Source of the DNA: Nitrospinae bacterium AH_259_B05_G02_I21
GTDB taxonomy: Bacteria; JADFOP01
Direction: 5' to 3'
DNA: 64,000 nt
Assembly: GCA_027717595.1 (NCBI GenBank)
Contig: JALLOF010000002.1
Location: forward strand, 29,324 to 93,323
Positions within the stretch are counted from its first letter, which is position 1. Each line of letters starts with the position of its first letter. This document shows, piece after piece, positions 20,794 through 38,623 of the stretch. Under the pieces are notes generated by a model that saw only the letters and a program-made list of their open reading frames with translations, searched no databases and had not been told where the DNA came from. A program made the position numbers and the translations under genes.

Positions 20794-22267
20794 CAGATGA
20801 GAACGCCTCTTGAGACGGGGGTGACGCCAGCCATCCTCGAACCATAGCGAAGGCCTCACGGAGCTCACGCTTTTCCACCACGATCGCTGCCCAGAGGCCC
20901 AAGAGGGCCAGGGGTACCACAATGGTGAAGACCGATCCTCCGGGCATGAGGGCCATCGCAACCAATACCGCCAAGGACCAGCTCAGAGCCTGGCGGTTTT
21001 TGGACTCCAGGCGCAGTCCCAAAACTTTGACGTGATAGGCGTAATTAAACGCAGCAAAGACCACATAGCTGACCAGGTAAGCTCCCACTAACCCTAATAT
21101 TCCGAAGCGGGGCATGAACAACCAGAAGACCGCAACCCACATAAGGTTCTGACACACCGCGAAGCTTATATATGCCCGCAGCGCCCCCAGGGCCAGCAGT
21201 GAGCCGTTTAAGATATAGGCGACGAGAAAAAAGCCGTCGCCCAAAAGCTGGAGAGGAAAGAGGCGTGTAGCCGGCAGGAATTCGCTGGAATAAACCAGGT
21301 AGACGATAGGCTGGCGAAAGGCCATCAAACCCGCAACGATAGGGATGAAGCAGAGGAGGCTGAACCGAACCGCCCTGTTGATCTCCGCTACTCGCTCGGT
21401 ATTGTCGACCGCCTGGCACATGGCGGGATAGTAGTGGCCCCACAACCCGTTGGTCAACAGCACCAAATAGAGGTTGTGAATAGCATAAACCACCTGGTAG
21501 TATCCGTTGGCTTCTAGCCCCAGGTCCCGGACCACGAGGGAACGCATATAAAGCAAGGCCAATAGCCCCATTACACCACCGGCAAATCCCGCCGCCCCAT
21601 ACGAGAGCAAGCCTTTTACCTCCCGCGTGACGAGTCGGAGACGAAACAGGGGACGGAAAGGGATCCGCCGGTGGAGGTACCAGAGGTTGACCCCCGCCCC
21701 CCAGCAAGCGACAACCACCAGGGAGATGAAGGCGCCCCGGACTCCCAGAAAGGCGATGAGGAGCACGAAGGGGACCAGCCCTCCCACCGCCGTCATGATG
21801 GCCACCCGGGTATAGGTGCCGTATTCGAGGAAGCCGTAGAATAGGGGTCCCCCTAAGCCGGAGGCCAGCACCATGAGCGGGATGGCGAGGGCCACCAGAG
21901 CTACCCATGGAGCGTACGCGACCGAAGCGAAGAGGAAGTGGGACAGCGGCCGAACGGCGACGAGCACCCCCGCCACCAAAATAACCGCCAGACCAATCTG
22001 GAGGGTGATAGAGCTGTGGATGACGTCGCCCAATCGGCTCTCCTCGCCCGTGCTCTGGTACTGCGACACGTACCTGATAATGCCCGTGCCCATCGAAAGG
22101 GTCGCCACGGTGGTTGCTAGGCTGAGGAACATGGTCGCCTGGGCCAGGAGGCCTACGCCGTCGGGTCCAAGCATGAAGGCTGCGTACTTGCCCCGCACCA
22201 ATGCCACTACAATGTTGACGAGGGAGAATGTCCCGATGACTGCCGCGGCGGTGGCTAAGCGTCGCAT
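20783..22267 (-). CDS. wzx: MOP-superfamily polysaccharide/oligosaccharide flippase (Wzx-like)
   Basis: 494 aa with ~12-14 TM helices. The N-terminal pattern (FSLVNIVVALVRGKYAAFMLGPDGVGLL) is typical of polysaccharide biosynthesis (Wzx/MATE-like) exporters. Confidence 0.65.
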   Translation of the reverse strand: MRRLATAAAVIGTFSLVNIVVALVRGKYAAFMLGPDGVGLLAQATMFLSLATTVATLSMGTGIIRYVSQYQSTGEESRLGDVIHSSITLQIGLAVILVAGVLVAVRPLSHFLFASVAYAPWVALVALAIPLMVLASGLGGPLFYGFLEYGTYTRVAIMTAVGGLVPFVLLIAFLGVRGAFISLVVVACWGAGVNLWYLHRRIPFRPLFRLRLVTREVKGLLSYGAAGFAGGVMGLLALLYMRSLVVRDLGLEANGYYQVVYAIHNLYLVLLTNGLWGHYYPAMCQAVDNTERVAEINRAVRFSLLCFIPIVAGLMAFRQPIVYLVYSSEFLPATRLFPLQLLGDGFFLVAYILNGSLLALGALRAYISFAVCQNLMWVAVFWLFMPRFGILGLVGAYLVSYVVFAAFNYAYHVKVLGLRLESKNRQALSWSLAVLVAMALMPGGSVFTIVVPLALLGLWAAIVVEKRELREAFAMVRGWLASPPSQEAFSSDGL

Positions 22268-22374
22268 GGGACTCCATCGCCGTTAGGCCAACCTCTACAG
22301 GGCTTCCGTAAAATCAAGAGCACGGTCAGCATTCCGGTTTTCCCAAAGGCGATTTTGGGTAACGAGGAGATACC

Positions 22375-22390
22375 TCTTCCCATGGGAAGA
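22375..22390. promoter_or_regulatory. 16-bp perfect palindrome TCTTCCCATGGGAAGA in the wzx upstream region (candidate operator)
   Basis: Read directly: tcttccca|tgggaaga is its own reverse complement. It lies ~110 bp upstream of the wzx start in a 236-bp intergenic gap. Confidence 0.35.
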
Positions 22391-22503
22391 AGGAAATCCC
22401 TGGGTTGACGATGCGTTTTTCGTCATGCCACCAGGCCACCCCCATCATAAAACGCAAGGCGATGTTTTCATCGGGCTGGTTTCGGCCTCCCCTCTCTGCT
22501 TGT

Positions 22504-23901
22504 CTAGACGGTGGTCGAGCGATAGAGGGTAGAGAAGAAACGCTCGCAAATTCGATACTCGATGCGCTGGGCCATCTCCTTCGAGTAGTGCTCTAAGGCA
22601 TAGGCCCGAGCTTTCGCCCCGAGTGACTTTCCGAACTCCGGATCCTCAAGGAGTCGCACGACAGCCCGAGCCATTGCCGCGGCGTCACGGAACGGTACAA
22701 CCAGGCCCCGTTCATCGCAGCCCAACAACTCGCTGTGCCAATCGTGATCGTAGGCCACAATGGGCGTGGCCGAAAGCGCTGCCTCGCTCAGAGCGACACC
22801 CATATGGGCGACCACAATCACATCCGCTGTAACAAACAGATCAAGGAGCTCTTCCTGTGACCGCCAGCCAAGAAACCGAACCGACTCCTCCAGCCCGCGG
22901 GCGTGGGCCTCTCGTTCGAGCTGTGGGCGAAGTTCTCCCTGGCCCACCATCAGGAGCACTGCTCTGGGATAATCGGCTATTACGTGTGTCATCATTGCCA
23001 GAAGGTCACCCGGATACTTTACAGGATGCAAGCGCCCCACACTGAGCAGGATAGGCCGACCCTCGAGGCCCAAAGTGGCTTGGAGATTTTTCCGTTCACC
23101 GGGATCGACCCTATGTAAACTGCTCGGATAGAACCGATAGGCGAAGCTCTTTTCAAGAGAAGCCCCGTGGGCCAGGGCGTAATCCTTGTAATGTTCCCAG
23201 TTGCCAATGACCAAATCAGCGCTGCCAAAGAGGAAGCGCTCCACCAGCCGTTCCACCATGGGCCATCGAAAGGGCGGAAAGGCCACCCGACCGACGCTCC
23301 GAGCCGAGGCGTCATAGTTCTGAACAACATGGATGCCAAAGGGAACTCCCGCCAAACGGGCGACGAACCACCCAAGGCATCCCAGAAGGTGTGGGTCCTG
23401 TGCTATGACCAAGCCGACGTGCTCTTGGCGACACACATCCACGAGGCGGCGGGCCAACCGCACCGCAGCCCACCATCCATTGATGGTAGAAAGTCCAATC
23501 TGCTCCAGCCAGCTAGGAGGGTGCTGACTCACTTGTATGACAGAAACTTGGTCACTGAATGTCCGCTGCTGTTCCGTCCCAGGTTGGGGAACGAAGGCGA
23601 CCTGCAGGGTCCGCAGAAAGAATGGGTTGGGATTGGGAGCAATATGCTCTTCCACCTGATAGCGGTCCACAACCTCAAGGTTCATCGGTTCCAATCGCAG
23701 CAAGGTTCGCTGCCGAGGGTTAGCCACGTGCTGCCTCCGAAGCGGAGCGGTGACCCCGACGATCAATGCCGCCAGCCCGCTTACTAACCAGGTTCCCACC
23801 GTCAGCAGCCGATCGGCCAAAGCGACCCATAACGGACGGTGCCTAGCTTTTCTAGTCATTTCCAAGGGATGCACTCCTTGGGCCGTTTTCCTGGAGACCA
23901 C
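22504..23901 (-). CDS. GT4 (GT-B) glycosyltransferase with N-terminal membrane anchor
   Basis: N-terminal TM (LLTVGTWLVSGLAALIVGV); C-terminal glycos_transf_1 region (RFLGWRSQEELLDLF...PIVAYD). Confidence 0.75.
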   Translation of the reverse strand: MVSRKTAQGVHPLEMTRKARHRPLWVALADRLLTVGTWLVSGLAALIVGVTAPLRRQHVANPRQRTLLRLEPMNLEVVDRYQVEEHIAPNPNPFFLRTLQVAFVPQPGTEQQRTFSDQVSVIQVSQHPPSWLEQIGLSTINGWWAAVRLARRLVDVCRQEHVGLVIAQDPHLLGCLGWFVARLAGVPFGIHVVQNYDASARSVGRVAFPPFRWPMVERLVERFLFGSADLVIGNWEHYKDYALAHGASLEKSFAYRFYPSSLHRVDPGERKNLQATLGLEGRPILLSVGRLHPVKYPGDLLAMMTHVIADYPRAVLLMVGQGELRPQLEREAHARGLEESVRFLGWRSQEELLDLFVTADVIVVAHMGVALSEAALSATPIVAYDHDWHSELLGCDERGLVVPFRDAAAMARAVVRLLEDPEFGKSLGAKARAYALEHYSKEMAQRIEYRICERFFSTLYRSTTV

Positions 23902-24271
23902 TAATGCTCCAAGTCCCCGTTGAAGAACTGGGTGGGTCGGCGAAGGACAGCATTTCTAACAAAGGTCACCATTCTGTGCCTTAGGTGCCCCCCGTAAGTG
24001 AAGGGCCACCTGCAAACCCGCACAATAGGCCTGAGCGTCAGCTGCGGGTAGATTCACCGCCACAACCTCGGTCACCAAGAGCAAGAGGTACACGGCGAGG
24101 AATCCTTTGCCGCTCCCAAGCTCCAGCTGCCGCTCCACCTTTGAAATGGGTAGTTCGATCCACAATAGCCAATTACAGGGTCCACAGCCTGTAATGAGGC
24201 CACGGCTGAGCCACAGGTGTAGTCCTGGCACAACGCCCTATGAGAGTCTCCAACCAGCCGGCAAGGATCCA

Positions 24272-25246
24272 TCACCACACCGCCTCCGGCTCCTGCGCCG
24301 CCATAGCCTCCAGAGGCATCCAACGAAACACATCCGGGTAGCTGGACCAGCACGATACGTGAGCTTCCACCTCTCGGCGAAAAGCAGGCAGGTCGTAGTC
24401 ATGAAAATGGAGCAGGCCCACCCGGGGGGCATGATGTGCCAGTTGAGCCAGGGCCGTCATCTTGGGGACCACCCGCAATGGGCTGACTGTGGCACCGACC
24501 AAATTCGGGAGCGAGACGAGATGGGTCGCAGGGGGCACGCGGACTGGGAGGCCGGGAGGGGGTGGCTGGGCGAGGGTGGTACCGCCAAAAGTGTTCCGCC
24601 CATCGAACCTGAGACTACAATCTATGACCACGCCATTCGCCTCTAACGTCTTAACGACCACAGGGGGAAGAAACCACCAACCCGCCGTGTAGGCCGTAAC
24701 CTTGAATCCCTTCTCAGCAAACCAGGCCAACTCCTCGAGCATCTGTGCCCGCACCACGGCCTCTCTTCCCAAGAGGGTGCGCGGGCCTATGGGTACTAGA
24801 TCGGGCTCCCACAACGCCCGCATAGGGCCGGCGGAGAAACGTTCCCGCTCTGCCACCATCGCTCTGTCGTCCACAGAAATGGTATCGAAGAAGTGACCGT
24901 GGTAGGCTAGGTCTGCCTCATCCGCTATTCTCTTCACCCGACCGGCGAAGGTTGTCTCTTCGGTCCCTACGGTCGCCATCAACCGGGCTGTCTGAGGACA
25001 GCGGGGAGTGGTCACCCCAACCACCGCTCGCACACCCGCAGTTCGTCGGAACCACCCGACTAAGGCCAGCAGCGCCTCAAAAGTGGTTTCCTGGGCGACG
25101 GCCTCGGCGTGAACACAAAAATTGAGGTCCACCGGACCCATCCCTGGCGAGAAGACCGGGGGTCTCAGTCGGCGCCATAGCTCCAAAAGGGCATGCACCA
25201 CCCGCTGGCGAGTCGAGCGGGGCGTGGCCAGCAATGCTCGGTTCAT
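24272..25246 (-). CDS. hypothetical protein (no confident family assignment)
   Basis: 324 aa ORF co-oriented with the operon and with a coding-like composition; no motif I can name with confidence. Confidence 0.4.
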   Translation of the reverse strand: MNRALLATPRSTRQRVVHALLELWRRLRPPVFSPGMGPVDLNFCVHAEAVAQETTFEALLALVGWFRRTAGVRAVVGVTTPRCPQTARLMATVGTEETTFAGRVKRIADEADLAYHGHFFDTISVDDRAMVAERERFSAGPMRALWEPDLVPIGPRTLLGREAVVRAQMLEELAWFAEKGFKVTAYTAGWWFLPPVVVKTLEANGVVIDCSLRFDGRNTFGGTTLAQPPPPGLPVRVPPATHLVSLPNLVGATVSPLRVVPKMTALAQLAHHAPRVGLLHFHDYDLPAFRREVEAHVSCWSSYPDVFRWMPLEAMAAQEPEAVW

Positions 25247-25267
25247 CCGCCCGACAGCCCTTTCAAG

Positions 25268-25859
25268 CTACCGGACCTCCACGAGGCGCTTGATGTTTTT
25301 GTAAGTCTTCGGGCAGAAGAGACCCACCGTCCTCGTAAGCCGATGGAAATCCTCGGGGTCGTGGCCGTTGATGAAAACGACGATGCCGTCTAAGGAGCTC
25401 TGGACGATCGGCTCAATATATCGCTCAAGCATCATTCCATTGGAAAAGGTTTTCACGATCATCCGCTTGTGAACGGCTGCGTCCTTGACCATGCAGAAGA
25501 GGTCTTTATTGAGCAACGGCTCCCCGGAGCCGATGACATTGATGCAAATAGTTCGGTCGAAACGATCGAAAGTGTACTTGAAGGTTTCAAAGTTGATATC
25601 CTCGGTCGTCCGTTGATTCCAATCGAAATCATCAGGGGATGATGTGGAATTGGATCGGACACATGGAGCAGGCAAGATCGCATCTACTGGTGGTGACGAT
25701 GGAGAGAGTCACCGGTCGGTGTGCAACCACTTTACCCCGTCGTGCAAATCTCGCGTGGAGACAATTAATCTTCTAATCTTCTAACCCCAAGTAAAGGGCC
25801 ACCGCCAGGCGCCAGCCACCAGCCACCCCCCAGACATCGCGGGCCGTGAGCACTTTCAT
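25268..25859 (-). pseudogene. degraded partial duplicate of the radical SAM gene 31466..32548 (N-terminal ~195 codons, multiple frameshifts/stops)
   Basis: DNA and protein similarity to 31960..32548 is visible from the start codon (…atcgcgggccgtgagcactttcat vs …atcgctggccgtgagcattttcat). The Cx3Cx2C region reads TTSRCDLACSMCP but is interrupted by stops and frame changes. The in-frame fragment 25268..25675 matches EDIDFETFKRTVDRFDR...NIIGAGEPLLNK of the intact gene. Confidence 0.65.
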
Positions 25860-26002
25860 AGTATCGGCGAAACCATCTTTTGCAAGCCGAGCAACCAAAC
25901 CGTCATGGCCCACACAGCTTCCAGCGAGGGATTGCCCGGGAAAACCAGGGCAACAAGAGTGAGAAACCATGCGGAGGGAAACCGGCCAAGAACTTCATAT
26001 TG

Positions 26003-26923
26003 TTAACACCGCCGTCCCTGAAGGGCCACCAAATCGGCCCCGAGAAGCTGAAGCTCCTCCAGGCCAGCTTCCTGAAACCAGGAAAAGACCTCGGGATAGG
26101 TATGATAGCTCTGGTATATCGACGAGTAGAAGTCGAATGTCTCGAGCACCCGGCGGCGCCAGTTTGGGTACATAGCAATGGGAAATAAGTACAACGTGAT
26201 TCCGCGAATCATCGGAATCTGATGGAGGTAGTAAATGGGCACGGCTAAGTGGCACAATGCGTACAAAAGACGTGGTGGCAAGCGAGAGGTCCACTGGCGG
26301 TACTTCTCCAACACGTAATTTGGCGGCCAACGGTACACACCTACAGCAATCCTGCCACCCCGCTTGAGCAACAGTGGCAACTCCAGGAAGGCCCGGTGAG
26401 GGTCGGGGGTGTGTTGGAGGACATAAATACTGAAGAGGCTATCAAAGGTCGAAGGAGCAAACGGCATCTGGAACACGCTCGCCTGCAGAAGGTGAACGTT
26501 TGGGCGACGACCGATGGCCTCAAAAGCAACATCCACCGAAGAACTGATATCGAATCCCACCACGGTCCCTCCAGCATCGTTGACCAATTTGGAGAAGCGC
26601 CCTGCTCCACACCCGACGTCTAGAACGAGCTGGCCCTTGAGGTCCTCCGGCAAAAACCCTGTGTTGCTACTGAACCGTTCCAAGGTTTCTTCGGCCCCAT
26701 CCTCCATGATCGTCCGCCTGTACTCTTTCCATAACAGGCTAAAATTGCTCGCGTAGGGGTCCACATCGACGAAACGGGGAATGTATTGGGTAATTGGATA
26801 AGCATGGTCTCCGCAGAATAGCGAACCCCTTTTCACCTCCTCACCATCCCACTCTAAAGCATCTAATCGGAACGGCTTCTTGCATTGGGGACAGACTAAG
26901 TAGTCCAGCAATCCGACCTTCAT
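26003..26923 (-). CDS. SAM-dependent methyltransferase with N-terminal Trm112-like zinc-ribbon
   Basis: YLVCPQCKKPF...LFCGDHAYPI (Trm112-like ribbon); motif I VLDVGCGAGRF; VVGFDIS; SIYVLQHTPDP. Confidence 0.75.
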   Translation of the reverse strand: MKVGLLDYLVCPQCKKPFRLDALEWDGEEVKRGSLFCGDHAYPITQYIPRFVDVDPYASNFSLLWKEYRRTIMEDGAEETLERFSSNTGFLPEDLKGQLVLDVGCGAGRFSKLVNDAGGTVVGFDISSSVDVAFEAIGRRPNVHLLQASVFQMPFAPSTFDSLFSIYVLQHTPDPHRAFLELPLLLKRGGRIAVGVYRWPPNYVLEKYRQWTSRLPPRLLYALCHLAVPIYYLHQIPMIRGITLYLFPIAMYPNWRRRVLETFDFYSSIYQSYHTYPEVFSWFQEAGLEELQLLGADLVALQGRRC

Positions 26924-27055
26924 CCCCTACCCCTTCGTGCACTCAACGCGAGAAGCCTGAGCCCTCAGCTTAGCCTGTCGAGCAGTCCCAGTAAGACACC
27001 GACCGCCTTTAAGATATCGCTTATTATTTATCGAGCGGACTCAAAAGTCCATCAG

Positions 27056-28600
27056 TTACCCGGTGTAACTAGCTACATCTTTCAAGTCTATGACGATTGG
27101 ATCTTCGATCGGCTGGAGGCGATCATACTTGCCAAGACCCCATGTGCCGTCCGGTACGCGCGCCAGACGGAGCCCCCTATTAAGGTTTATTTTGTCCACG
27201 TTTTTATCATAATTAAGACGGTAGTGTATGGAACGGCGAATGTGGCGGAAAACATTTTTAGCATCGTAACGCAGTACCAGAAGCCACTTCATGATGCGAT
27301 GGGCATTAGGGCTCAAGCTTGAATCGTTGTAGGTTCCTGCCTTAATGCTAATTATTTTCCTGGCCAGCTTCCTCTCCTCGGCGGTAAACTCGGGAGTTTC
27401 GTAAGCTACCTCGTCATACTTGTCTCCGATGGAGGACATGGAATATGAATCGGAAAGGGTGTTGACGTCGTCGTTGTTAAGCACCCAGTCCGCTAGGGGT
27501 GTTCCCGTCATGTGTGTCGCCGTGGAATAAGCAAGCACATCGAAGCCCATTTTTTGAGCCTTTTCGAAGGAAGTGACAGTTTTCTTCAGCGTGTCGCCGG
27601 GGAGTCCTATGATCATGTACCCAAAAATCTCCCAATCATACTTCCGCATCTTCTTCACACTTTCGATTATTTCCTCCATCGTCTCGCCCTTGTTAATCTG
27701 GGCGTACACTTCCTCGTCTAAGGATTCCACTCCGACCCAAATACGCTTGCATTTGGCACGATACATCTTTTCCAAAAGATCCTCAGGCGCCCTGTCAGCC
27801 CTGAACCCTTGTATAACCCAGGGCAGGTCTATGTTTTCTTCAATAAGAAGATCGCAGAATTCAACTATCCGCCTTGGCCTCATATTGAACGAAGCATCAA
27901 CAATATGGAAAAGGCTAATATTGTACTTCTCCTTGGCCATTTTAAGTTCTTCGATTATATTCTCCGGGCTGCGGGCCCTCCATTTCTTCACAGGCATAAA
28001 ACAGAATGAGCAGCTGTAAGGACAGCCACGGCTTGTATTAATTGGATACACATCCATTCCCTGACCGCCGTAAATTTCATAGTCAGGGAAGAGTAACTTA
28101 TCAACATTTTTATCGTTCACCCTTGCCATGTTCTCCACAAGGCGGTCTCCATCCCACCACACCAAACCAGCTATCCCTTCCAACTCCTTTTTACCGTTTT
28201 TCCTTTCTAGGGCGTCAACCAATTCGACCATGGTCACCTCGCCCTCTCCTAGAACAGCAAAGTCTGCGCCCGTCATATCCTCCAACGATTTAGCACCTAG
28301 TCCCAGTATCTCGGGGCCACCTACCACAATTTTCCCGCTGTAATATTTCCTGAGCTTTTCAATATACTCTTTGGCTGATTTATACGTTATGTTATAGACA
28401 GGGAACCCTATGAGACCGGGGTTATAACCACCCACAGCTTTTTTAATCCGCTCATCGACAGGACCTGTCCTGATGTTTACCGTATCAAGCAAGCTGACCT
28501 GGTGGCCGGCCGCCCTCAGATGGGCCGAAAGATAACCTAATCCCAGGTTAATACCGGTACTCTCCGTGGCACCAAAAAGATCAACCAATAATATTTTCAT
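27056..28600 (-). CDS. B12-binding (cobalamin) radical SAM protein (class B radical SAM, putative C-/P-methyltransferase-type)
   Basis: N-terminal B12-binding Rossmann-like domain (MKILLVDL...), radical SAM Cx3Cx2C (TSRGCPYSCSFCFM), 514 aa. Visibly AT-richer than its flanks. Confidence 0.8.
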   Translation of the reverse strand: MKILLVDLFGATESTGINLGLGYLSAHLRAAGHQVSLLDTVNIRTGPVDERIKKAVGGYNPGLIGFPVYNITYKSAKEYIEKLRKYYSGKIVVGGPEILGLGAKSLEDMTGADFAVLGEGEVTMVELVDALERKNGKKELEGIAGLVWWDGDRLVENMARVNDKNVDKLLFPDYEIYGGQGMDVYPINTSRGCPYSCSFCFMPVKKWRARSPENIIEELKMAKEKYNISLFHIVDASFNMRPRRIVEFCDLLIEENIDLPWVIQGFRADRAPEDLLEKMYRAKCKRIWVGVESLDEEVYAQINKGETMEEIIESVKKMRKYDWEIFGYMIIGLPGDTLKKTVTSFEKAQKMGFDVLAYSTATHMTGTPLADWVLNNDDVNTLSDSYSMSSIGDKYDEVAYETPEFTAEERKLARKIISIKAGTYNDSSLSPNAHRIMKWLLVLRYDAKNVFRHIRRSIHYRLNYDKNVDKINLNRGLRLARVPDGTWGLGKYDRLQPIEDPIVIDLKDVASYTG

Positions 28601-28632
28601 CTCGACTGCCTCCCTTAGCAGTGGACGACCTT

Positions 28633-28668
28633 ATTACACCAAGCCACCCTATTACACCAAGCCACCCT
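28633..28668. repeat. 18-bp perfect tandem direct repeat x2 (ATTACACCAAGCCACCCT) in the upstream region of the B12-radical SAM gene
   Basis: Read directly at 28633..28650 and 28651..28668, 33-68 bp upstream of the minus-strand gene start (28600). Confidence 0.5.
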
Positions 28669-28930
28669 ACCCGTGTCAAGGTGTCCCCTTTCAAGCGGGG
28701 GCCAGTATGAACCTGAGGAGTCTGATAGGGCCGCAAAAATCTTCCATTGCCGCTGGCTTGAGCCTGAACATTGTCCGACGGGCTACTGCTATCCTAAAGA
28801 GCTGGCACGCATCTATTTAAACCAATTGAAACAGTGGATTTGGATTAAAGAACCAACCTGGGATTCATTCCCTCCAGCGACTCATCTACTTGAGAAGGAT
28901 TTTTCCCTATGCACTTTAAAAGCCCATCGA

Positions 28931-30127
28931 CTAAGATGGGCTCGCGTCCGCAGGTGAGTAGTACCCTGGCCTCGAGTTGAATGCCGCGGTTCGAACCCGC
29001 TGCACCCGCTCTCGCAATCCGCTCGAGTATGTTTTAACGGTCCGTTTGAACGCCTCGAAATCCCCGGGCGCCGGAACTCGCCTGAGCAGGAAGGGATCAG
29101 AACCCCGTACGTTTACTCCGCAGTCGTTAGTAATAGCCCCCTTGTACCCTAGCTGCTGTGCAAGTGAGATTAACAGCGAAGAATGCTCCCCGAAAGGCCA
29201 GCAGATGTATTTGCATGGTCGATCGAGGTATTCTTCGAGGAGGGCTTTCGAGCGCACCAATTCCTCGACGACTCTTCGGAGATACACCTCATGGTCCTCG
29301 TAGAAACCCGCTTGCCCGTGCTCTTTTCGATACTCTTCGACAATGCGCCAAAGCTTCGATTCCAATTCCGCCTGCACCTCAGTGGAGGTTCCAGGGCATG
29401 AGTTCGTCGCGAATTCCACCAAGCGTTCTACCAAGCGTTCATCATCAATGTAACGTCTGGCAACAAGGGCGGAGCGCCAGGGGTGGAGGGGTAATCCAGA
29501 CCTGAGATCGCCTCTTGTAGAGGCAACGGCTTCCCAGGGCGGGGTCGAATCGAGCAGGAAGCCAGTGATCGTCTCATCATAGAAACATGGACTGTGGGTA
29601 TGAGTGTGGGAATAGATATCGATGAGCCCGCTCTTCACCATCTGTTTAACTTCTGACCAGTTTACGTGACCCCCACCGAAGCGCCCGCCTGAATACGCCC
29701 TAGCGTTTGCAACCTCATGGGTCGGGATGGAAGGAAGCTGGTCGAGGGTAACACGCCCTTCCCAGACATCATAAAGATTAGGTCTAGTCTCTCCTTCTCC
29801 CGCCTCCACCCGTTCTGTGATGAGGCATAGGGCGGCCTTCAACCCATACTTCTTCAGGATGGGATAAGCGTAGACCCAGTTATCCAGATAACCGTCGTCA
29901 AAGGTGATGACTACTGACGGCGAAGGAGGAGGACGGCGACCGTAAAGAAATCGTATGAGTTCAGAGATATGAAGAGTGTAGTAGCCCTTTTCGGCTAGAT
30001 ACCGCATCTGCTCCTCAAAGACCTCAGGGCTCATAGAGAAGCTCCGCCCACCGGTTTCGAAGTTCACGTGATGATAAGCAAGTATCGGGGTTCTGCTAAA
30101 AGCAAACAATAGATATCTCCTTGCCAC
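28931..30127 (-). CDS. polysaccharide deacetylase (CE4/NodB family)
   Basis: NodB motif 1 VITFDDGYLDNW; 398 aa with a CE4-like core and a C-terminal extension. Confidence 0.75.
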   Translation of the reverse strand: MARRYLLFAFSRTPILAYHHVNFETGGRSFSMSPEVFEEQMRYLAEKGYYTLHISELIRFLYGRRPPPSPSVVITFDDGYLDNWVYAYPILKKYGLKAALCLITERVEAGEGETRPNLYDVWEGRVTLDQLPSIPTHEVANARAYSGGRFGGGHVNWSEVKQMVKSGLIDIYSHTHTHSPCFYDETITGFLLDSTPPWEAVASTRGDLRSGLPLHPWRSALVARRYIDDERLVERLVEFATNSCPGTSTEVQAELESKLWRIVEEYRKEHGQAGFYEDHEVYLRRVVEELVRSKALLEEYLDRPCKYICWPFGEHSSLLISLAQQLGYKGAITNDCGVNVRGSDPFLLRRVPAPGDFEAFKRTVKTYSSGLRERVQRVRTAAFNSRPGYYSPADASPS

Positions 30128-30183
30128 GGGAGGCCTTTTTATTCATATCTCCATTGTGGTTTCATATTTTATTCCGATTCCAC

Positions 30184-31533
30184 CTAAGCGGCTAGCCGGT
30201 CGAGTAATTCCGCCAGAGCCGCGGTCGCAGCCTGCCGAGTGTAGTGGTTAACCACGGCGCCGTCCCCACCGTAAGGTAGGCGTCCTGTATGCTCGATGGC
30301 CGTTACCCATTTCAGGAGACAATCTTTGACCTCCGCGACAGAAGTCGTCAGCACGCCAGCACCGCTGGCGCGGATCAGCCGGCTCATCTCGCCTTCCATC
30401 GCATGCAGAAGCAGGATGGGTCGCCGGGCCCCCAGGTACTCGAAGAGCTTGGACGTGTGACAGCCCTCCCCGCGGGGCCCTGTCCATGGAACGGAGAGGA
30501 GCGCGGTGGTGGCCTGCTGGAGACCCAATGCCTCCTGATGGGAGACCGGTGCGCAGCGCTCTACACAGGCCGAAACACCGTATTCGGTCGCCAGGGCCTC
30601 GACATCGACCATCTCGAAACCCTCCATCAGATAAAATCGGCAGCGGACCTGCTCCGGCCGCAGGCGGCCCCCAGCGAGAAGCTCGGCCAGGGCCTGAAAG
30701 AGGACCGAGGGGTCCTGATGGCGGGGATGAAGCCTTCCCGTGTAAAGGAGCTCGAGCCGCTTGTGGCGAGTCGGCCCTGACGAGACCGGGTAGTCGGTCG
30801 GGTCGAACCCGTGAGGGATGACCATCACGCGGTCTGCCAGGTCTGGGTGAGAGCGGGCAAGGCCCTCCGCCCAGGTCTCGGACAGCGTCACGATGGCATC
30901 AGCATCGGACAGCACCCGTCCCTCTAGCCACCGAAGGGAGCGCCGCTTCCAAGTGGACCAGTCCCGGTAGTGGTCGTCGCTCCAGGGGTCCCGCAGGTCG
31001 GCGATCCATGGGACGCCAGCTTCCCGGGCGAGTCGGCGGGCGATGAGGTGGGCCGACTCGGGCGGAGAGGTAGAATAAACGGCCTCCACAGGCTCTTCGG
31101 CCAACAGCCGCCGACCAGCGGCCAGGGCGGGCTTGATCCACCCACGTTGATCGTCGGGAAACGTCAAGAGTTCCCGCACCGCCCGCCGGAGCCCCGACAC
31201 CGACCGAAGGGGGCCCTCCCCCACCCTCCCCGACACCTGAGGGATCAACGGCCGAGAGCGCCTGAAGAAGGCAAGGCAATCCCGCTCCCCCGTGGCGACG
31301 ACGCGGACGCCGACTCCCAGGGAATCTCGAACCGTGGGGGTGAGCACCACTGGATGCCAGCCGTGATCTGGCAGGTACTGGGCGAATTTCGACACCCGGA
31401 GGCCCCCCACGCCGTCCGCGTGGGTCCAGTGGTAGGTCACCACGAGCACGGACCGGGTAGTTGGCTCACCAAGGGTTAACGCCATAATTCTCTGGACAGA
31501 CCTTGCATGGGTCGAAAAGGACGCTTTTGTCAT
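30184..31533 (-). CDS. GT-B glycosyltransferase (GT4-like)
   Basis: N-terminal VLVVTYHW...GGLRVSKFAQYL (GT4 N-domain); C-terminal LYTGRLHPRHQD...SKLFEYLGARRPILL (glycos_transf_1-like). Confidence 0.65.
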   Translation of the reverse strand: MTKASFSTHARSVQRIMALTLGEPTTRSVLVVTYHWTHADGVGGLRVSKFAQYLPDHGWHPVVLTPTVRDSLGVGVRVVATGERDCLAFFRRSRPLIPQVSGRVGEGPLRSVSGLRRAVRELLTFPDDQRGWIKPALAAGRRLLAEEPVEAVYSTSPPESAHLIARRLAREAGVPWIADLRDPWSDDHYRDWSTWKRRSLRWLEGRVLSDADAIVTLSETWAEGLARSHPDLADRVMVIPHGFDPTDYPVSSGPTRHKRLELLYTGRLHPRHQDPSVLFQALAELLAGGRLRPEQVRCRFYLMEGFEMVDVEALATEYGVSACVERCAPVSHQEALGLQQATTALLSVPWTGPRGEGCHTSKLFEYLGARRPILLLHAMEGEMSRLIRASGAGVLTTSVAEVKDCLLKWVTAIEHTGRLPYGGDGAVVNHYTRQAATAALAELLDRLAA

Positions 31534-32548
31534 CCGTCAGGAAACGGGCCCGGCGGTTCTGAAAGAAAGTACTGTTCCAGACCTCAGCATCAGTAATCTT
31601 GCCGTTGCCTTCCATGTTGAGAAGCATGATGGAGCAGCTCGAGAAATTCTGCGCCCCGTCCACCCGCAGCTGGTCGAAGTGGCAGGAACACTGCTTGGTC
31701 GTCTGGGCAGGGTCGAGGAGGGTAGGCAAGACGACTTTGCCCTGCATGTTGGAGGGGACAACTGTCCGCAGGAACTCGACCATATCGGTGTCCTGGACGA
31801 AGAGGCTCCGCTCCTCGGCACGGAAACCATCGAAAGGAGCCGAGAGAAAGTTGCACAAGAAGACCTGGTCCACCCCAACCTCGTCGGCAACCCGGAGGAA
31901 CTCGGGAATCAGAGGCCAGTTCTGCTGATCAATAATGAAGGATGCTTTGATTTTGACGGGTGAGCCAAGGGCGTTGCGAGCCTCAACAAGACGTTTGACG
32001 TTTTTGTAAATCTTCGGGTAGAGAAGACCAGGCATGCCCGTGATTCGGTTAAACTCTTCGGAGTTGTGGGCGTTGATGGAAACGGTGATGCCGTCCAGGT
32101 GGCTGCGAACGATGGGCTCAATATAGCGCTCAAGCGTCGTTCCATTGGAGAAGGTTTTCACAACCATCTTCTTATGCACGGCGGCGTACTTGGCTATTCG
32201 GAAGAGGTTTTTATTCAGTAACGGCTCTCCCGCCCCGATGATGTTGACGTAGATAGCCCGGTCGAAACGATCGACGGTACGCTTGAACGTCTCGAAGTCG
32301 ATATCTTCGGCCATTTGCTGATTCCACTCGTAATCAACAGGGATGACGCTGGAGTGCGTTGGACACATGGTACAGGTGAGGTTGCACCGGCCAGTGGCAA
32401 CGATGGAGAGGGTCACCGGTTGGTGTGCAACCACCTTGCCCCTCCGAGCAAGCTTAGCGTGGAGGAAGTTTACCTTCTGTCTCCAGGTGAAGGGTCGCCG
32501 CCATACACTAGCCACTTCGCGGAGATCGCTGGCCGTGAGCATTTTCAT
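31466..32548 (-). CDS. radical SAM protein with C-terminal SPASM-like Cys cluster
   Basis: Cx3Cx2C (ATGRCNLTCTMCP); C-terminal CSCHFDQ...SSCS...CKVCPEN. This is the intact paralog of the pseudogene at 25268..25859. Confidence 0.75.
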   Translation of the reverse strand: MKMLTASDLREVASVWRRPFTWRQKVNFLHAKLARRGKVVAHQPVTLSIVATGRCNLTCTMCPTHSSVIPVDYEWNQQMAEDIDFETFKRTVDRFDRAIYVNIIGAGEPLLNKNLFRIAKYAAVHKKMVVKTFSNGTTLERYIEPIVRSHLDGITVSINAHNSEEFNRITGMPGLLYPKIYKNVKRLVEARNALGSPVKIKASFIIDQQNWPLIPEFLRVADEVGVDQVFLCNFLSAPFDGFRAEERSLFVQDTDMVEFLRTVVPSNMQGKVVLPTLLDPAQTTKQCSCHFDQLRVDGAQNFSSCSIMLLNMEGNGKITDAEVWNSTFFQNRRARFLTDDKSVLFDPCKVCPENYGVNPW

Positions 32549-34488
32549 AGCTTCGACTCTCCCTCCCGATCAATGAAAATCCGAAACCAAAGCTCCAGGT
32601 TGACCCAGGACCAAATGGTAAAGTCCAGATTGGCCTGACCAGAGCAGTGGGCTTGGAAGGCCGCTTGGCTCCGGCCCGGGTCGAGATAGCCCCTCTGGCT
32701 CAGCACCTTGGGGGCCAAGAGTTCAGCAATTCGCTGGCGAAGGTCGCTGCGAAACCAAGGCCCCATAGGGGTAACGAAGCCCATCTTATCAGGCCTCGCC
32801 AGCACCGTCTCTGGAACCACGCCGCGGCATGCCTCGCGCAAGATGCGCTTGGTGTATCCCTTTTGGATTTTTTGCTCAGGCGGCAGGCTGAAAAGAAACT
32901 CCACCAACCGATAGTCCATAAAGGGAGATCGGGCCTCCACTGAGTGGGCCATGCCGTTCCTATCCTCGATGCGAAGCAGCGAGGGCAATGGGGATATGGT
33001 AAACCCTCGGTAAAGGGCGTCGTTGAGGCAAGAAGAAAAGCGCCTCGGCGTCGGAGCAGTCGGTCTCATGCGGTCGGCAAAATTTCGGCTTAGATAGGGA
33101 GGTTGGCCACTAAGCTTCCGGGCCTTCCTCCTGGGCAACCAATGAGAAGCCAGAAGCCTTAGGGCTTGCCCTAGGGCCGGATAGACCGCCCCGCCCGTAA
33201 CCCGCCTGAAGTCCACCAGCTCCCGCAATAAAGTCACCCAACGTCCCGTCCTTATCGAGTCGGCGAAGAAGGCTGGATAGTATTTGTGGTAGCCCGCCAA
33301 GCCCTCGTCTCCCCCCTGGCCTGTCAGAATTACCTTGAAACCCTTCTGGTGGGCCGCCTCCATCACGAACCACTGAGCGTAAATGGAAAGCCCCGCGTAA
33401 GGTTCGTCCTGATGCCAGATGACCCGCTCTATGTTCTCAAAAAGGGAATCCCCCGAGGGAAAGACGAAGGTGGGGGAAACCGAAACCTCATCCAACACCC
33501 GATGGATGTACGGGCGCTCATCGTAGGCTGGCTCCTCGAAGCAAGAGGAGAAGGTGGCAACCCCCCCCTTGCAGGTTACCTGATCCGCCAGGCAGGTGAT
33601 GGCCGAAGAGTCCAATCCGCCGCTTAAGCTGATGGCCACAGGCACATCGCTCCTGAGCCTCAAAGCCACCGCCGAGCGCAGCAAATCGAGAAACTCCTCG
33701 GCTAGCCCGGTATCGCTTCGGCCCCGGCTCGCCACCTCCCGGGGCTCCAAATCCCAGTAGCGGTGCTCCCGAAGTCCCTCGGGTCCAACCTCCAAAACAT
33801 GGGCCGGCCTCACCTGGGTGATACCACGGAAGAAGGTCCGCTCCGAGAGGTCCACGTAGCCATAGCCCCTGGCCAGGTAGTCATATATAGCCTGGTCGTC
33901 GGGCTGGGGGCTAACCTGCGGATCAGCCAGAAGGGCTTTTATTTCAGAGGCGAAAAGGAGGCGGTTGCCTACCTCGGTATAGTAGAGGGGCTTGACCCCA
34001 AATCGGTCTCTGGAGAGGAGCAGCTTCCGCCGATGACCGTCCCATAGGCCGAGGGCCCACATGCCGTTGAACCTGCGGAAGCAGTCAAGACCCCACTGGC
34101 GGTAGGCCGCCAAGAGAACCTCGGTGTCGCTTGTGGAGCGGAAGCGATGGCCCAAGGCTTCCAGCTCCTGGCGAAGCTCGATGTAGTTATATATTTCGCC
34201 GTTATAGACCACCCAGCAGACGCCGTTTCGGCAGGGCATAGGCTGGTGGCCGCTTTCCGTAAGGTCTATGATAGCTAGCCGTCGGTGACCTAGTCCCAGG
34301 CTGTATCCCCTTTCCGGTGGCCATTCCTCACCGGGCCGCCAGGACCAATGCTGACCATTCCTGGGATGAACCATCCAATAGCCCTCACCGTCGGGACCTC
34401 GGTGAATGATCCCCGATGTCATCCGCCTAAGGAGGGAGAAATCGACTGGCTCTCCACCCAGTTCCCAAATGCCGGTAATACCGCACAC
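32545..34488 (-). CDS. asnB: asparagine synthase (glutamine-hydrolysing) family amidotransferase (AsnB/PseA-like)
   Basis: N-terminal MCGITGIW (class II GATase Cys2); synthetase domain with SGGLDSS PP-loop; 647 aa. The 4-bp overlap with the downstream radical SAM start suggests translational coupling. Confidence 0.85.
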   Translation of the reverse strand: MCGITGIWELGGEPVDFSLLRRMTSGIIHRGPDGEGYWMVHPRNGQHWSWRPGEEWPPERGYSLGLGHRRLAIIDLTESGHQPMPCRNGVCWVVYNGEIYNYIELRQELEALGHRFRSTSDTEVLLAAYRQWGLDCFRRFNGMWALGLWDGHRRKLLLSRDRFGVKPLYYTEVGNRLLFASEIKALLADPQVSPQPDDQAIYDYLARGYGYVDLSERTFFRGITQVRPAHVLEVGPEGLREHRYWDLEPREVASRGRSDTGLAEEFLDLLRSAVALRLRSDVPVAISLSGGLDSSAITCLADQVTCKGGVATFSSCFEEPAYDERPYIHRVLDEVSVSPTFVFPSGDSLFENIERVIWHQDEPYAGLSIYAQWFVMEAAHQKGFKVILTGQGGDEGLAGYHKYYPAFFADSIRTGRWVTLLRELVDFRRVTGGAVYPALGQALRLLASHWLPRRKARKLSGQPPYLSRNFADRMRPTAPTPRRFSSCLNDALYRGFTISPLPSLLRIEDRNGMAHSVEARSPFMDYRLVEFLFSLPPEQKIQKGYTKRILREACRGVVPETVLARPDKMGFVTPMGPWFRSDLRQRIAELLAPKVLSQRGYLDPGRSQAAFQAHCSGQANLDFTIWSWVNLELWFRIFIDREGESKL

Positions 34489-34524
34489 AGCCCGTCTTGC
34501 CCTCCTCTACAGCTACACCCCGCC

Positions 34525-35106
34525 TTATGACAGTCTGAAGACTTGCTCCTCGGGAATCCCCAAGGCCTTGATTTTACCTATAATCTCATCTTCGTGCCGA
34601 AAGGAGGTCACCACCACCCGGTCGAAATCTAGCTCCTTCAGCCTCTGGGAGGGCAAAATATCAAAGCCAAAGAACGACTCCCCCGCTCTATGGTCATCCA
34701 CCACGCCAGCCAAGGAGAGGTCCGTCTCGTGCAGGGATATGTATGCCACCTCGGCCACCTCGCCGGCCCCGTAAAAGGCCAACGAGCTTACCCCCTCCCT
34801 TCTGAGGGTGTGAAAGGCGGTGGCGATTTGCCCGCGGGCGTTGGAATAATACTTAAAGGAATGCTGGAGGTATTCGTAAGTAAGACGGGATTTTTCCATC
34901 AGTCCTGCGGGGGTTAAAAGGTAGCGGATGTCATTGGCGCTTGCCCGGTGAATCTTGACAAATCCCTTGTGGACGAACCGCTTCAGGTAGGCATTGGTCA
35001 AGCCAAGGGCGATACCCAGCTTCTTTGCGAGCGAGCGCTGGGTGAGCTTGACGCCGCTTTCAATCTCGGTCAGCAGCTGGAGGGTGCGTAAGAGGTCCTT
35101 TTCCAT
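34525..35106 (-). CDS. winged-helix transcriptional regulator with C-terminal Rossmann-like (Rex-like architecture) domain
   Basis: N-terminal wHTH (LTQRSLAKKLGIALGLTNAYLKRFVHKGFVKI); C-terminal glycine-rich FYGAGEVAEVAY. It is the first gene of the long minus-strand block and is preceded by a 700-bp non-coding region. Confidence 0.55.
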   Translation of the reverse strand: MEKDLLRTLQLLTEIESGVKLTQRSLAKKLGIALGLTNAYLKRFVHKGFVKIHRASANDIRYLLTPAGLMEKSRLTYEYLQHSFKYYSNARGQIATAFHTLRREGVSSLAFYGAGEVAEVAYISLHETDLSLAGVVDDHRAGESFFGFDILPSQRLKELDFDRVVVTSFRHEDEIIGKIKALGIPEEQVFRLS

Positions 35107-35305
35107 CGACCCTAGTGCTTGAGCCCTCTAGTGTGTCCCGAATGGAAGGAAAAACACCACGGATGAGAGGGTTAGGCTACGGCTTAAAGGTACGGCTCCG
35201 CCCCGTGGGTTACATTCGTATGTAACCGATAGGGGGATTGCTGGTGTGGGCTGGTCTCCGGCCACTAAAGACGAGGACTACAATATCCTCGACGGGCGGA
35301 GAAAC

Positions 35306-35346
35306 TTGAACGTCCCTAAATTGGCAAGGGCGTTCAATTATTGAAC
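35306..35346. promoter_or_regulatory. nested inverted repeats TTGAACG-N18-CGTTCAA-tta-TTGAAC upstream of the regulator gene (candidate operator)
   Basis: Read directly: TTGAACG 35306..35312, CGTTCAA 35331..35337, TTGAAC 35341..35346. GTTCAA-N3-TTGAAC is a perfect inverted repeat. It lies ~200-240 bp upstream of the regulator start (35106). Confidence 0.35.
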
Positions 35347-35807
35347 AATAATAGCTTTCCAGGAAAAGGTGTCAAGGGAAAAATGCAAAATCGGCTTCAT
35401 TCCCAACCGTTTGCAGGTGGATTATCCAACTGCGGAGTTCAAATAAGGCTCGGAACCCATTTATTCCGGGATTATTCCTTCCCTAAGAAAGTTGACCTCG
35501 TCATGTCCTTGCTCAGGTGACCCACCATCCATCTCTTTGCGCCCAAGACGCACGACGTCGTTCAGGATCGCCCCGTCAGGACGAGGTGGGGCTGCCCACT
35601 CACAAGCTCAGTGTGGGAACACCAGGAATAACTCTCGGGTTCACCCCCCTAGGCCGCCCTGCGCAAGCCATTCCTCGCAGGTCACCCCTCTCACCAGCGG
35701 TGACAATCGGAGCAGTGGGCGTACAGTTCACCAGCCAAGGCATGGGTGGCTAGCAGGCGACTAAGAAGGTTGCTAGGATAGTCCTTCTCACTGCCTAACT
35801 AACCCTG

Positions 35808-36425
35808 TTACAACCCCTTGCCCCGGAGCGCAGTGCGAAGGGTCTGGAGTAATAGATTCAGATCGTATCGAAGCCGTTGTCCTGGGCTCATGGTAGCGGC
35901 CTTACGGACATATTCGGCATCCAGACGCATGTTCTCATGCCGACTGGCACTCCGTCCCTTGTAGGCCTGGGTCAGTCCCGCCCATCCCGCCTTCACCCGT
36001 CGCTTACTGTCGGCCCCCTCGGACAACTCCAGTTCATATTCCCACGGTGGGACGGGCCGTGGCCCTACGAGCCGCATCTCCCCTCGCAAAACGTTGAAGA
36101 GTTGAGGAAGCTCATCGAGATACCACTTTAGCAAGAAGCGTCCTACTCGGGTGGCGTTAGGATTATCCTCGTAGGTGGTATACCGTTTACCGGGCTTGTC
36201 GTACTCATCGGGATGGCGATGGGCCAAAACAGTCCGAAACTTGAACATTCCAAAGCGCTCCCCTTGCGAGATGCGGGTCGTCGTCCAGATCGCTGGGCCC
36301 CTTGCCGCCGGATCGAAGAGACCCTCCACCTTGATGGCCAAAGCGATGACCCCTAGTAAGGGCGACAGGCAGAGCAAAATTGCACCTGCGGTAAGTTTAT
36401 CGACCGCTGTATTTATCCATGACAT
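35808..36425 (-). CDS. small monotopic phosphoglycosyl transferase (PglC/WbaP C-terminal 'bacterial sugar transferase' family)
   Basis: N-terminal re-entrant helix (AILLCLSPLLGVIALAIKV), RFLLKWYLDELPQLFNVLRGEMRLVGPRP catalytic motifs (DE dyad, PRP), 205 aa. Confidence 0.8.
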   Translation of the reverse strand: MSWINTAVDKLTAGAILLCLSPLLGVIALAIKVEGLFDPAARGPAIWTTTRISQGERFGMFKFRTVLAHRHPDEYDKPGKRYTTYEDNPNATRVGRFLLKWYLDELPQLFNVLRGEMRLVGPRPVPPWEYELELSEGADSKRRVKAGWAGLTQAYKGRSASRHENMRLDAEYVRKAATMSPGQRLRYDLNLLLQTLRTALRGKGL

Positions 36426-36518
36426 TGGTCCATCCAGCTTACGACCACATCAGGGGTTGCCAGCAGAAGGGTAAGGAGTGTCGTTAAGATAGCTCGTCTC
36501 ATCGTTTAACAAACCCTG

Positions 36519-37133
36519 TTATAACCCCTCGCCCCGCAGCACCGTTTGGAGGGTGCGAAGTGTCACTCGCAGGTCATACCGGAGCCGTTGCCACGAGCTC
36601 ATATTAGCAACCCGACGGACGTACCAGGCATCCAAGCGCCTGCTCTTGTACTCGCTGCCTGTGGCTCCCTTGGAAGACTGGGCAAGCCCTGCCCAACCAG
36701 CCTTTACAAGTCGTTTTGTGTCGGCCCCTAAAGACAACTCTCTTTCGTAATACCACGGTTGGACGGGCCGAGGCCCCACGAGTCGCATCTCCCCACGCAA
36801 GATGTTAAGGAGTTGAGGAAATTCATCGAGATACCATTTCAACAAGAAGCGTCCAACCCGCGTGGAATGGGGGTTGGTTTGGTATGTGTAGGCTTCGTCG
36901 ATTTTTTCGTAGCCATCGGGATGGCGATTGGCCTTAAGTGTCCGAAGCTTGAACATACCAAAGCGCTCCCCCTGTGAGATACGGGTTACAGTCCAGATGA
37001 CCGGGCCCCTTGCCGCCGGATCGAAAAGACCCTCCACCTTGATGGCCAAGGCGATGACCCCTAGCAAGGGCGACAGGCAGAGCAAAATTGCTCCTGCGAT
37101 GAGTTTATCTGCCGCTGTATTTATCCACGACAT
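36519..37133 (-). CDS. small monotopic phosphoglycosyl transferase, tandem paralog of 35808..36425
   Basis: Same motifs (RFLLKWYLDEFPQLLNILRGEMRLVGPRP). Roughly three-quarters identical to the neighbour by eye, with near-identical 5' DNA. Confidence 0.8.
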   Translation of the reverse strand: MSWINTAADKLIAGAILLCLSPLLGVIALAIKVEGLFDPAARGPVIWTVTRISQGERFGMFKLRTLKANRHPDGYEKIDEAYTYQTNPHSTRVGRFLLKWYLDEFPQLLNILRGEMRLVGPRPVQPWYYERELSLGADTKRLVKAGWAGLAQSSKGATGSEYKSRRLDAWYVRRVANMSSWQRLRYDLRVTLRTLQTVLRGEGL

Positions 37134-37597
37134 CGGTATATCCAGCCTACGTCCAAAGAAGGAGCAACCGACAAGAGGACCAGGTGGTGTATTATACGAG
37201 CGGATTTGGGTCTGTTCACACCCGCTACACTACCAGCCTCAAGGTACTCCTTCAATCTGAATGGACACTGAGGCAAAGTTCTGAGGATCGCGGCGACCCG
37301 AGAGGCATCTCTTTGATTATGCAACCTTTTGGAAATCACCAATGACGAATTCTCCAGAGGGGAGTTTCTCCTACCCCCATTATTTTGCTTTGAGGATACC
37401 TCACAATCACATTGAACACATCTCCAGTTATCGCGATGTGAATGAGAAACATAGAGTGATGGGACCAGGAATGCGGCTTTGGAGCCGTTGGTTGGTGGAG
37501 AGACCGGCTGCAGAACAAACCCGGCTGATTTTATCTCATTTTGCTCCGTCCTCGGATTGTGTCAGACCTCATAGCGCCGGCCCGTTATTCTATTCCT

Positions 37598-38605: not shown

Positions 38606-38623
38606 CCACAGAGGAATAGTATC

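Follow-up and report, generated by a model that had tools for sequence, protein, structure and literature searches.

The segment 25268..25859 of the window (by which we mean the whole stretch of 64,000 nucleotides which was analysed) is a pseudogene: it combines a clear homology to the intact radical SAM gene of the same cluster with several disabling lesions, and only the front half of the gene is left. We shall call it the stub. We consider, with a probability of about 0.6, that the stub is a scar at the edge of a 4.94-kb block which was inserted in the 3' end of a GT4 glycosyltransferase gene in the lineage of the window. Very probably it is the remnant of an old dead gene and not a recent duplicate. 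Judged from its sequence, the stub is very probably without function today.

Between 35106 and 20783, every gene is on the minus strand; together these genes make up a polysaccharide-type cluster, whose order is: HTH regulator, AsnB, radical SAM, GT4, deacetylase, B12 radical SAM, methyltransferase, stub, hyp324, GT1 and Wzx-like flippase (Table 1). The stub lies 143 nt downstream of the methyltransferase gene, which is annotated with 234 or with 277 aa in the two assemblies described below; the 306-aa frame adds the Trm112-like zinc ribbon. A scan of the full window against Rfam gave no match, and a scan for promoters and terminators around the stub gave the same counts as shuffled sequence, with none inside the stub. 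The 330-nt spacer between the deacetylase and B12 radical SAM genes contains two 18-bp units in tandem, which are 94% identical (ACCTTATTACACCAAGCC / ACCCTATTACACCAAGCC, positions 28628..28663).

Table 1. Features of the radical SAM stub and of its surroundings in the window
Feature	Positions	Strand	Evidence or remark
AsnB-type amidotransferase	32545..34488	-	
Intact radical SAM gene, 360 aa, in the AsnB - radical SAM - GT4 trio	31466..32548	-	profile match, alignment
GT4 glycosyltransferase; last codons LDRLAA*, unlike the L005 tail	30184..31533	-	block starts there
Block absent from L005/L012, 4,937 nt (new GT4 tail, deacetylase, B12-radical SAM, methyltransferase, stub)	25268..30204	-	
Polysaccharide deacetylase, in block	28931..30127	-	
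B12-binding radical SAM, in block; lowest-GC stretch of the window	27056..28600	-	
Class I methyltransferase with N-terminal Trm112-like zinc ribbon, in block	26003..26923	-	PF03966, NF038101
Radical SAM stub (second copy), codons 1-191 of ~360	25268..25859	-	alignment; ends with TAG at 25268..25270
7-bp perfect tandem duplication GGTGGCT x2, first frameshift	25814..25827	-	gaps in pairwise alignment
8-bp perfect tandem duplication TTAGAAGA x2, which contains the CAG->TAG stop	25769..25784	-	CAG (Q24) in both relatives
C-run lengthened by one C (+1 frameshift), 8 codons past CX3CX2C	25634..25637	-	alignment
Orphaned GT4 end, last 7 codons + TGA, LERAVGG* after removal of one extra G	25243..25267	-	LNRAVGG* in L005
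hyp324, orphan 324-aa gene directly downstream of the stub	24272..25246	-	
Second remnant: ~102 frameshifted 5' methyltransferase codons, in-frame stop, no start codon	23971..24268	-	intact in L005 (9138..10127)

In local alignment and blastn, positions 25276..25861 pair with 31981..32550, both on the minus strand, with 73.9% DNA identity over 586 columns (E = 9e-102); overall, the DNA identity between the stub and the intact gene is about 74-75%. The same pairing, between copies 6.7 kb apart, is recovered by a repeat finder (repeats D1-D3). This confirms the original prediction, according to which the stub reproduces the gene 31466..32548 from its start codon onwards; a short chance similarity, which would have spoken against it, is not what the pairwise nucleotide alignment gives. 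The stub is also, as had been claimed, a partial copy of the front of the gene, but the number of codons is 191 and not about 195. After removal of 7, 8 and 1 nt, the repaired stub aligns with the intact copy over these 191 codons without any gap, with 65-66% protein identity. No trace of residues 192-360 of the radical SAM protein was detected by tblastn across the 64-kb window. In GenBank, the tail of the stub (25268..25516, minus strand) appears as an 82-aa hypothetical protein, MYX64_00800.

Four disabling lesions, namely three indels and one nonsense codon, are present in the stub (Table 1), in addition to the loss of codons 192-360. Read from the ATG at 25859, the unrepaired frame is open for 28 codons and then meets a stop at 25773..25775. 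Even after removal of the indels, one in-frame TAG persists where the intact gene and its L005 ortholog (see below) have CAG (Gln24). The stop and the frameshifts which had been noticed beforehand are thus real, the frame changes being three indels rather than "at least two". On the other hand the CX3CX2C motif, which had been taken as interrupted, is whole: it reads CDLACSMC in frame 2, the +1 shift comes 8 codons after it, and it is the upstream lesions which sever it from any start codon. Programmed frameshifting of the stub is ruled out by the in-frame stop, by the three separate indels and by the missing half of the gene.

Since the DNA comes from amplified single cells and one of the lesions is the addition of one nucleotide in a homopolymer, one can ask if the gene is in truth intact, or if the block is a chimera of single-cell genome amplification. 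The window proteins are present in two deposited assemblies: the three-cell co-assembly AH_259_B05_G02_I21 (contig of 104,786 bp) and the single cell AH-259-F20 (GCA_027717765.1, contig of 27,979 bp). This second contig is 100% identical to positions 21466..39323 of the window (17,858 nt), stub included. As the same sequence is found in two independent single-cell assemblies, the lesions of the stub are not sequencing errors. Moreover, duplications of 7 and 8 bp, a nonsense codon and a missing 3' half are atypical of read errors, and a chimera would not rejoin the cluster within 9 nt of its exit point. With two separately assembled genomes identical over 17.9 kb, we give almost no credence to an artefact.

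A single related lineage was found. It is represented by a contig of 17 kb (JGI 3300037247, hereafter L005), which was reached through its homolog of hyp324; an identical, independent contig (L012) comes from SRR11832551. The protein hyp324 matches no Pfam or NCBIfam profile, and among 5.8 billion protein clusters it has one other homolog cluster, that of L005/L012 (73% identity), where its position after GT4 is conserved. The order in L005 is HTH - AsnB - radical SAM - GT4 - hyp324 - methyltransferase - GT1 - methyltransferase - flippase, and GT4 overlaps hyp324 (GTGA). The DNA alignment of the window with L005 runs from 35376 to 30212, breaks, and then runs from 25267 to 24005. Both L005 and L012 join window position 30212 to 25267 within 8 nt, with conserved flanks, so that a block of 4,937 nt is absent from them, and the point where the stub is truncated is the exact right end of this block. 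Just beyond this end lies the orphaned end of GT4: most of its differences from the L005 tail are synonymous, and the old TGA has kept its overlap with the hyp324 ATG. Another candidate relative, L011, proved spurious (it had been recruited by a 41-aa GT4 cluster mate and has no nucleotide similarity to the window).

The block differs from its surroundings in several ways. Its GC content is 0.512, compared to a window mean of 0.571 (SD 0.047, in 1-kb windows) and to 0.62-0.66 in the two flanking genes, while its GC3 is 0.55-0.65, compared to 0.69-0.75 in the flanking genes. Its intergenic gaps are long (330, 132 and 143 nt), unlike the overlapping genes of the core. It is bounded by an imperfect 9-nt direct repeat, 6/9 identical: CTCGACCGG (30196..30204) and CTTGAAAGG (25259..25267). 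No open reading frame for a transposase or integrase was found in the block, a clean target-site duplication is absent, and no remnant of AsnB was found upstream of the stub. Scans of genomes and metagenomes with the intact protein, with a three-sequence alignment (twice) and with the B12-radical SAM protein found no relatives, and in particular no donor cluster of the order deacetylase - B12 radical SAM - methyltransferase - full-length radical SAM. The closest homolog of the methyltransferase of the block is 49% identical; beside the methyltransferase homologs, no donor-like gene order was seen in the contexts inspected, the radical SAM gene of one of them (L007) being of a different, B12-like type.

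We then come to the age of the stub. Between the repaired stub and the intact gene, dS is 0.93 and dN 0.19 (Nei-Gojobori), which gives a dN/dS of 0.20, and the differences at codon positions 1, 2 and 3 number 44, 28 and 73. Neutral drift since a recent duplication would give equal counts of changes at all three positions. Because of this low ratio and of the 44/28/73 bias, we concluded that most of the divergence between the stub and the intact gene arose while both genes were under purifying selection. The L005 radical SAM gene is much closer to the intact gene (87.5% protein identity, dS 0.40) and has a dS of 1.26 to the stub; in the gene tree, the L005 gene and the intact gene are paired, and the stub falls outside them on a branch about twice as long. 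Of the changes found in the stub only, 57 are at positions 1 and 2 and 52 at position 3, whereas pure neutrality predicts a ratio of 2:1. From this split we can roughly estimate that the neutral phase of the stub would amount to about 0.05 substitutions per site, a phase which would be short relative to the divergence between the window and L005; the estimate fits the mere four disabling lesions. The similarity of the stub to the intact gene ends within about 8 nt upstream of the ATG. In the 150 nt upstream, the two copies align no better than shuffled sequences (225 out of 500 reach the observed score), and downstream of the stub the two copies have nothing in common either. As the similarity stops at the ATG, the ancestor of the stub was a whole gene with an upstream region of its own, not an arbitrary duplicated piece.

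These results bear on the original prediction, which saw in the stub a dead segmental duplicate recording a recent rearrangement. That the copy is non-functional, frameshifted and truncated, and that it marks a rearrangement, stands; the recent segmental origin has to be given up, with a dS of 0.93. It could still be argued, in favor of a recent duplication of the 5' half of the resident gene, now decaying and usable as a recombination partner, that the two copies are each other's closest relatives among known sequences, the L005 ortholog aside, and that they are located in one cluster and on the same strand. Nevertheless, the third-position excess together with the dN/dS of 0.20 is incompatible with a neutral fresh copy, the identity of 74-75% is low, and the edge of the homology is the start codon: the ends are not arbitrary, no flanks are included and no near-neutral pattern of substitution is seen. 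The position of the stub in the gene tree, outside the intact and L005 genes, points in the same direction, and a recent duplication is hardly credible.

The longest identical run between the stub and the intact gene is 16 nt, which is about as long as chance alone would produce in 576 nt at 75% identity, while RecA-dependent recombination usually needs roughly 20-30 nt of identity. Because this run is so short, the stub is a poor recombination partner for the intact gene, contrary to what had been proposed, and no conversion tract was seen. Gene conversion between the two copies was therefore rejected, and the excess of L005-specific changes is accounted for by the lower GC3 of L005 (0.58, compared to 0.68) together with a group of changes within the first 21 nt.

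What the stub has lost can be read from the intact gene. Seven cysteines of the latter, C55/59/62 and C287/305/348/351, do not vary in the family (11 of 11 relatives), and the last four of them belong to the half which is missing in the stub. The intact gene matches PF04055 with 58.1 bits, above the gathering threshold of 29.5, while the 135-aa open frame of the stub has 23.6 bits, below this threshold, as expected of a fragment. With a CX3CX2C motif, the binding site of the [4Fe-4S] cluster in the superfamily, and four invariant C-terminal cysteines, the intact gene resembles the SPASM/twitch radical SAM enzymes, and its best NCBIfam profiles are of this type; its C-terminus probably holds a predicted auxiliary Fe-S cluster. 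It differs from these enzymes in that it has no match to the SPASM model of Pfam (PF13186) and in that every NCBIfam score is far under the curated cut-off (the best match, TIGR04317, has 83 bits for a cut-off of 380). The sole PDB match of the protein is weak (8wm2_A, E 2e-4). As the SPASM model and the curated cut-offs failed and the PDB match is weak, we regard this radical SAM subfamily as uncharacterised.

The family is also rare: a search of 1.84 billion proteins yielded 77 representatives at E < 1e-30, the best outside match being 55% identical. What distinguishes the family is the AsnB - radical SAM - GT4 neighbourhood, often with overlapping stop and start codons (L002, L003, L005). 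The original prediction had pointed to related genomes as the place where an intact second copy might be found; a single radical SAM gene is present in each of those compared, L005/L012 and the distant relatives L002 and L003, which in the latter belongs to the AsnB - radical SAM - GT4 trio. In the search for an intact second copy elsewhere, the repaired stub protein retrieved only a 48%-identical protein, which has the AsnB - radical SAM - GT4 context; the word-index search with the repaired stub missed the intact copy and the L005 gene and is thus not exhaustive. In the exhaustive search with the intact protein, no representative was nearer to the stub than the intact copy is, it being understood that an ortholog of the stub could go unseen among representatives if it fell into the same 50% cluster as the intact gene. 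Two radical SAM-like genes of the window, 1369..2169 and 7544..8572 (both on the minus strand), are 21-28% identical to the intact gene or to L005 14060..15139, which is a separate radical SAM/SPASM gene; they are unrelated to the stub.

The locus bears other marks of exchange. Next to hyp324, at another junction of the cluster, lies a second remnant, that of a methyltransferase gene (Table 1), whose remainder is missing, as in the stub; the GT1 gene downstream of it shares only 45% identity with that of L005, and the second methyltransferase of L005 (250 aa) is absent from the window. This points to another cassette replacement. In addition, the window has not diverged evenly from L005. A tract from about 30850 to 32527 (minus strand; L005 5820..~7500), which covers the intact radical SAM gene and GT4 in its 5' half, has a dS of 0.28-0.65, compared to 0.8-1.4 in HTH, AsnB, hyp324, the flippase and GT4 in its 3' half. 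On the left the tract ends sharply, about 22 nt inside the radical SAM gene. This suggests a more recent homologous exchange, either between both lineages or from a third one. As the uneven divergence points to further exchange, simple clock arguments across the locus are unsafe.

Our preferred reading is then the following. The parent of the stub would have been a once-functional second radical SAM gene of the same rare family, long diverged from 31466..32548, which may have been a paralog or a homolog from a related lineage. A block from another cluster would have been inserted 21 nt before the end of GT4, at a late date when measured against the split from L005. The radical SAM gene which came with it would have been cut at the right-hand junction, at codon 191, either at the time of the insertion or by one later deletion, and would have lost with its C-terminal half the four invariant cysteines. 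Being incomplete and redundant with the resident copy, it would then have decayed through the nonsense codon, the duplications of 7 and 8 bp by slippage and the additional nucleotide in the C-run. As for the mechanism, we infer that the block would have been joined by illegitimate recombination, or by homology-facilitated illegitimate recombination anchored in a shared region of GT4; the new tail LDRLAA*, which is like LNRAVGG*, and the imperfect 9-nt repeat fit either process. The polarity of the event rests on the orphaned GT4 tail, on the base composition and on the low degree of decay, with one related lineage compared, and the recombination tracts found elsewhere in the locus complicate the dating of the insertion. 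We also looked at the GT4 C-termini of the distant relatives for polarising the indel, and these are too divergent to help.

Two lineages cannot formally polarise an indel, and one can imagine instead an ancestor with GT4 - deacetylase - B12 radical SAM - methyltransferase - full-length second radical SAM - hyp324, from which L005 lost the block while the lineage of the window separately lost the 3' half of the second radical SAM gene. The divergence of the stub from the intact gene does predate that of the intact gene from L005, and the direct repeat flanking the block could mediate a deletion. This history nevertheless needs two independent deletions ending at one nucleotide (+/-3) just upstream of hyp324. 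It also leaves the 21 nt which follow the stub to be explained, as a conserved GT4 C-terminus with its stop over the start of hyp324 is unexpected in a spacer. Four lesions and about 0.05 neutral substitutions per site are too few for a death before the split, the GC content of the block is deviant and the more distant relatives are single-copy. We hence regard an ancestral block as unlikely. The uneven divergence of the locus invites still another history, in which the stub would be the original gene and the intact gene a newcomer, the tract of low divergence being a recently imported allele; the dS of 1.26 between the stub and L005 is indeed in line with the background divergence. However, the stub is not at the syntenic site after AsnB, it has its own unrelated upstream region of 143 nt and it lies inside the compositionally deviant block. 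As a simple allelic replacement leaves no remnant, extra events would be required as well, and a resident stub seems to us very unlikely.

All these histories take the stub for dead. Its residual frame, of 135 aa from a TTG or 82 aa from an ATG, could yet be useful, or its translation could shield hyp324 from polarity: the open frame reaches 21 nt before the start of hyp324, the stub is within a string of co-oriented genes and GenBank lists the 82-aa protein. But the open frame contains neither the CX3CX2C motif nor the four C-terminal cysteines and stays below the Pfam threshold (23.6 for 29.5), the short form has no homologs besides itself in 1.8 billion representative proteins, and L005 does without the stub. 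A working remnant thus appears highly improbable. It is just as improbable, to our mind, that the stub would be kept as a translational bridge, whose residual frame would hold ribosomes on the mRNA and spare the downstream operon Rho-dependent polarity after the insertion.

The preferred reading, an insertion with the stub as its scar, has several known parallels. In homology-facilitated illegitimate recombination, as in Acinetobacter and Streptococcus pneumoniae, foreign DNA finds its anchor in a single homologous flank, and its other end is joined illegitimately. Here a possible anchor would be the GT4 tail, and the other end of the block is an abrupt intragenic junction with only short imperfect repeats; the difference is that in our case the process is purely inferred, the donor and the left crossover point being not identifiable. 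With duplicated (non-processed) pseudogenes, the stub shares its homology to a functional gene of the same genome, its frameshifts, its nonsense codon and its truncation, but the pattern of its divergence rules out that it originated as a recent duplicate of the resident gene. It is more aptly called what is left of an old paralog, or of a homolog which came from another lineage. In its setting, the stub resembles the gene remnants known at the junctions of O-antigen and capsule clusters, for example the wzy remnants in Salmonella groups B1 and D1 (PMC3715488). As in Salmonella, a truncated and decayed biosynthesis gene sits in a working cluster, at the boundary of blocks with different histories and divergence, with a functional counterpart elsewhere, and several remnants are found in one locus. 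Unlike the Salmonella remnants (PMC3715488), the stub derives from a radical SAM gene and not from a polymerase or transferase gene, its junction has no insertion sequence or H-repeat element, and its host is an uncultured Nitrospinae.

The value of the stub thus lies mainly in annotation and in the history of the locus, which is the ordinary mosaic evolution of a polysaccharide locus. Since gene remnants at junctions are well known, specialists will find nothing surprising in it: it is an ordinary phenomenon in a new place. As regards annotation, MYX64_00800 deserves a pseudogene flag and not the label of a hypothetical protein. The stub also brings to notice a radical SAM family which is rare and uncharacterised and which always adjoins an AsnB-type amidotransferase and a GT4 glycosyltransferase. 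Finally, the stub, the orphaned GT4 tail and the methyltransferase remnant together pinpoint where cassettes were exchanged within this polysaccharide cluster of an uncultured Nitrospinae lineage. These three features mark the trio of deacetylase, B12-radical SAM and methyltransferase genes as a probable late addition, which would probably alter the decoration of the polymer.
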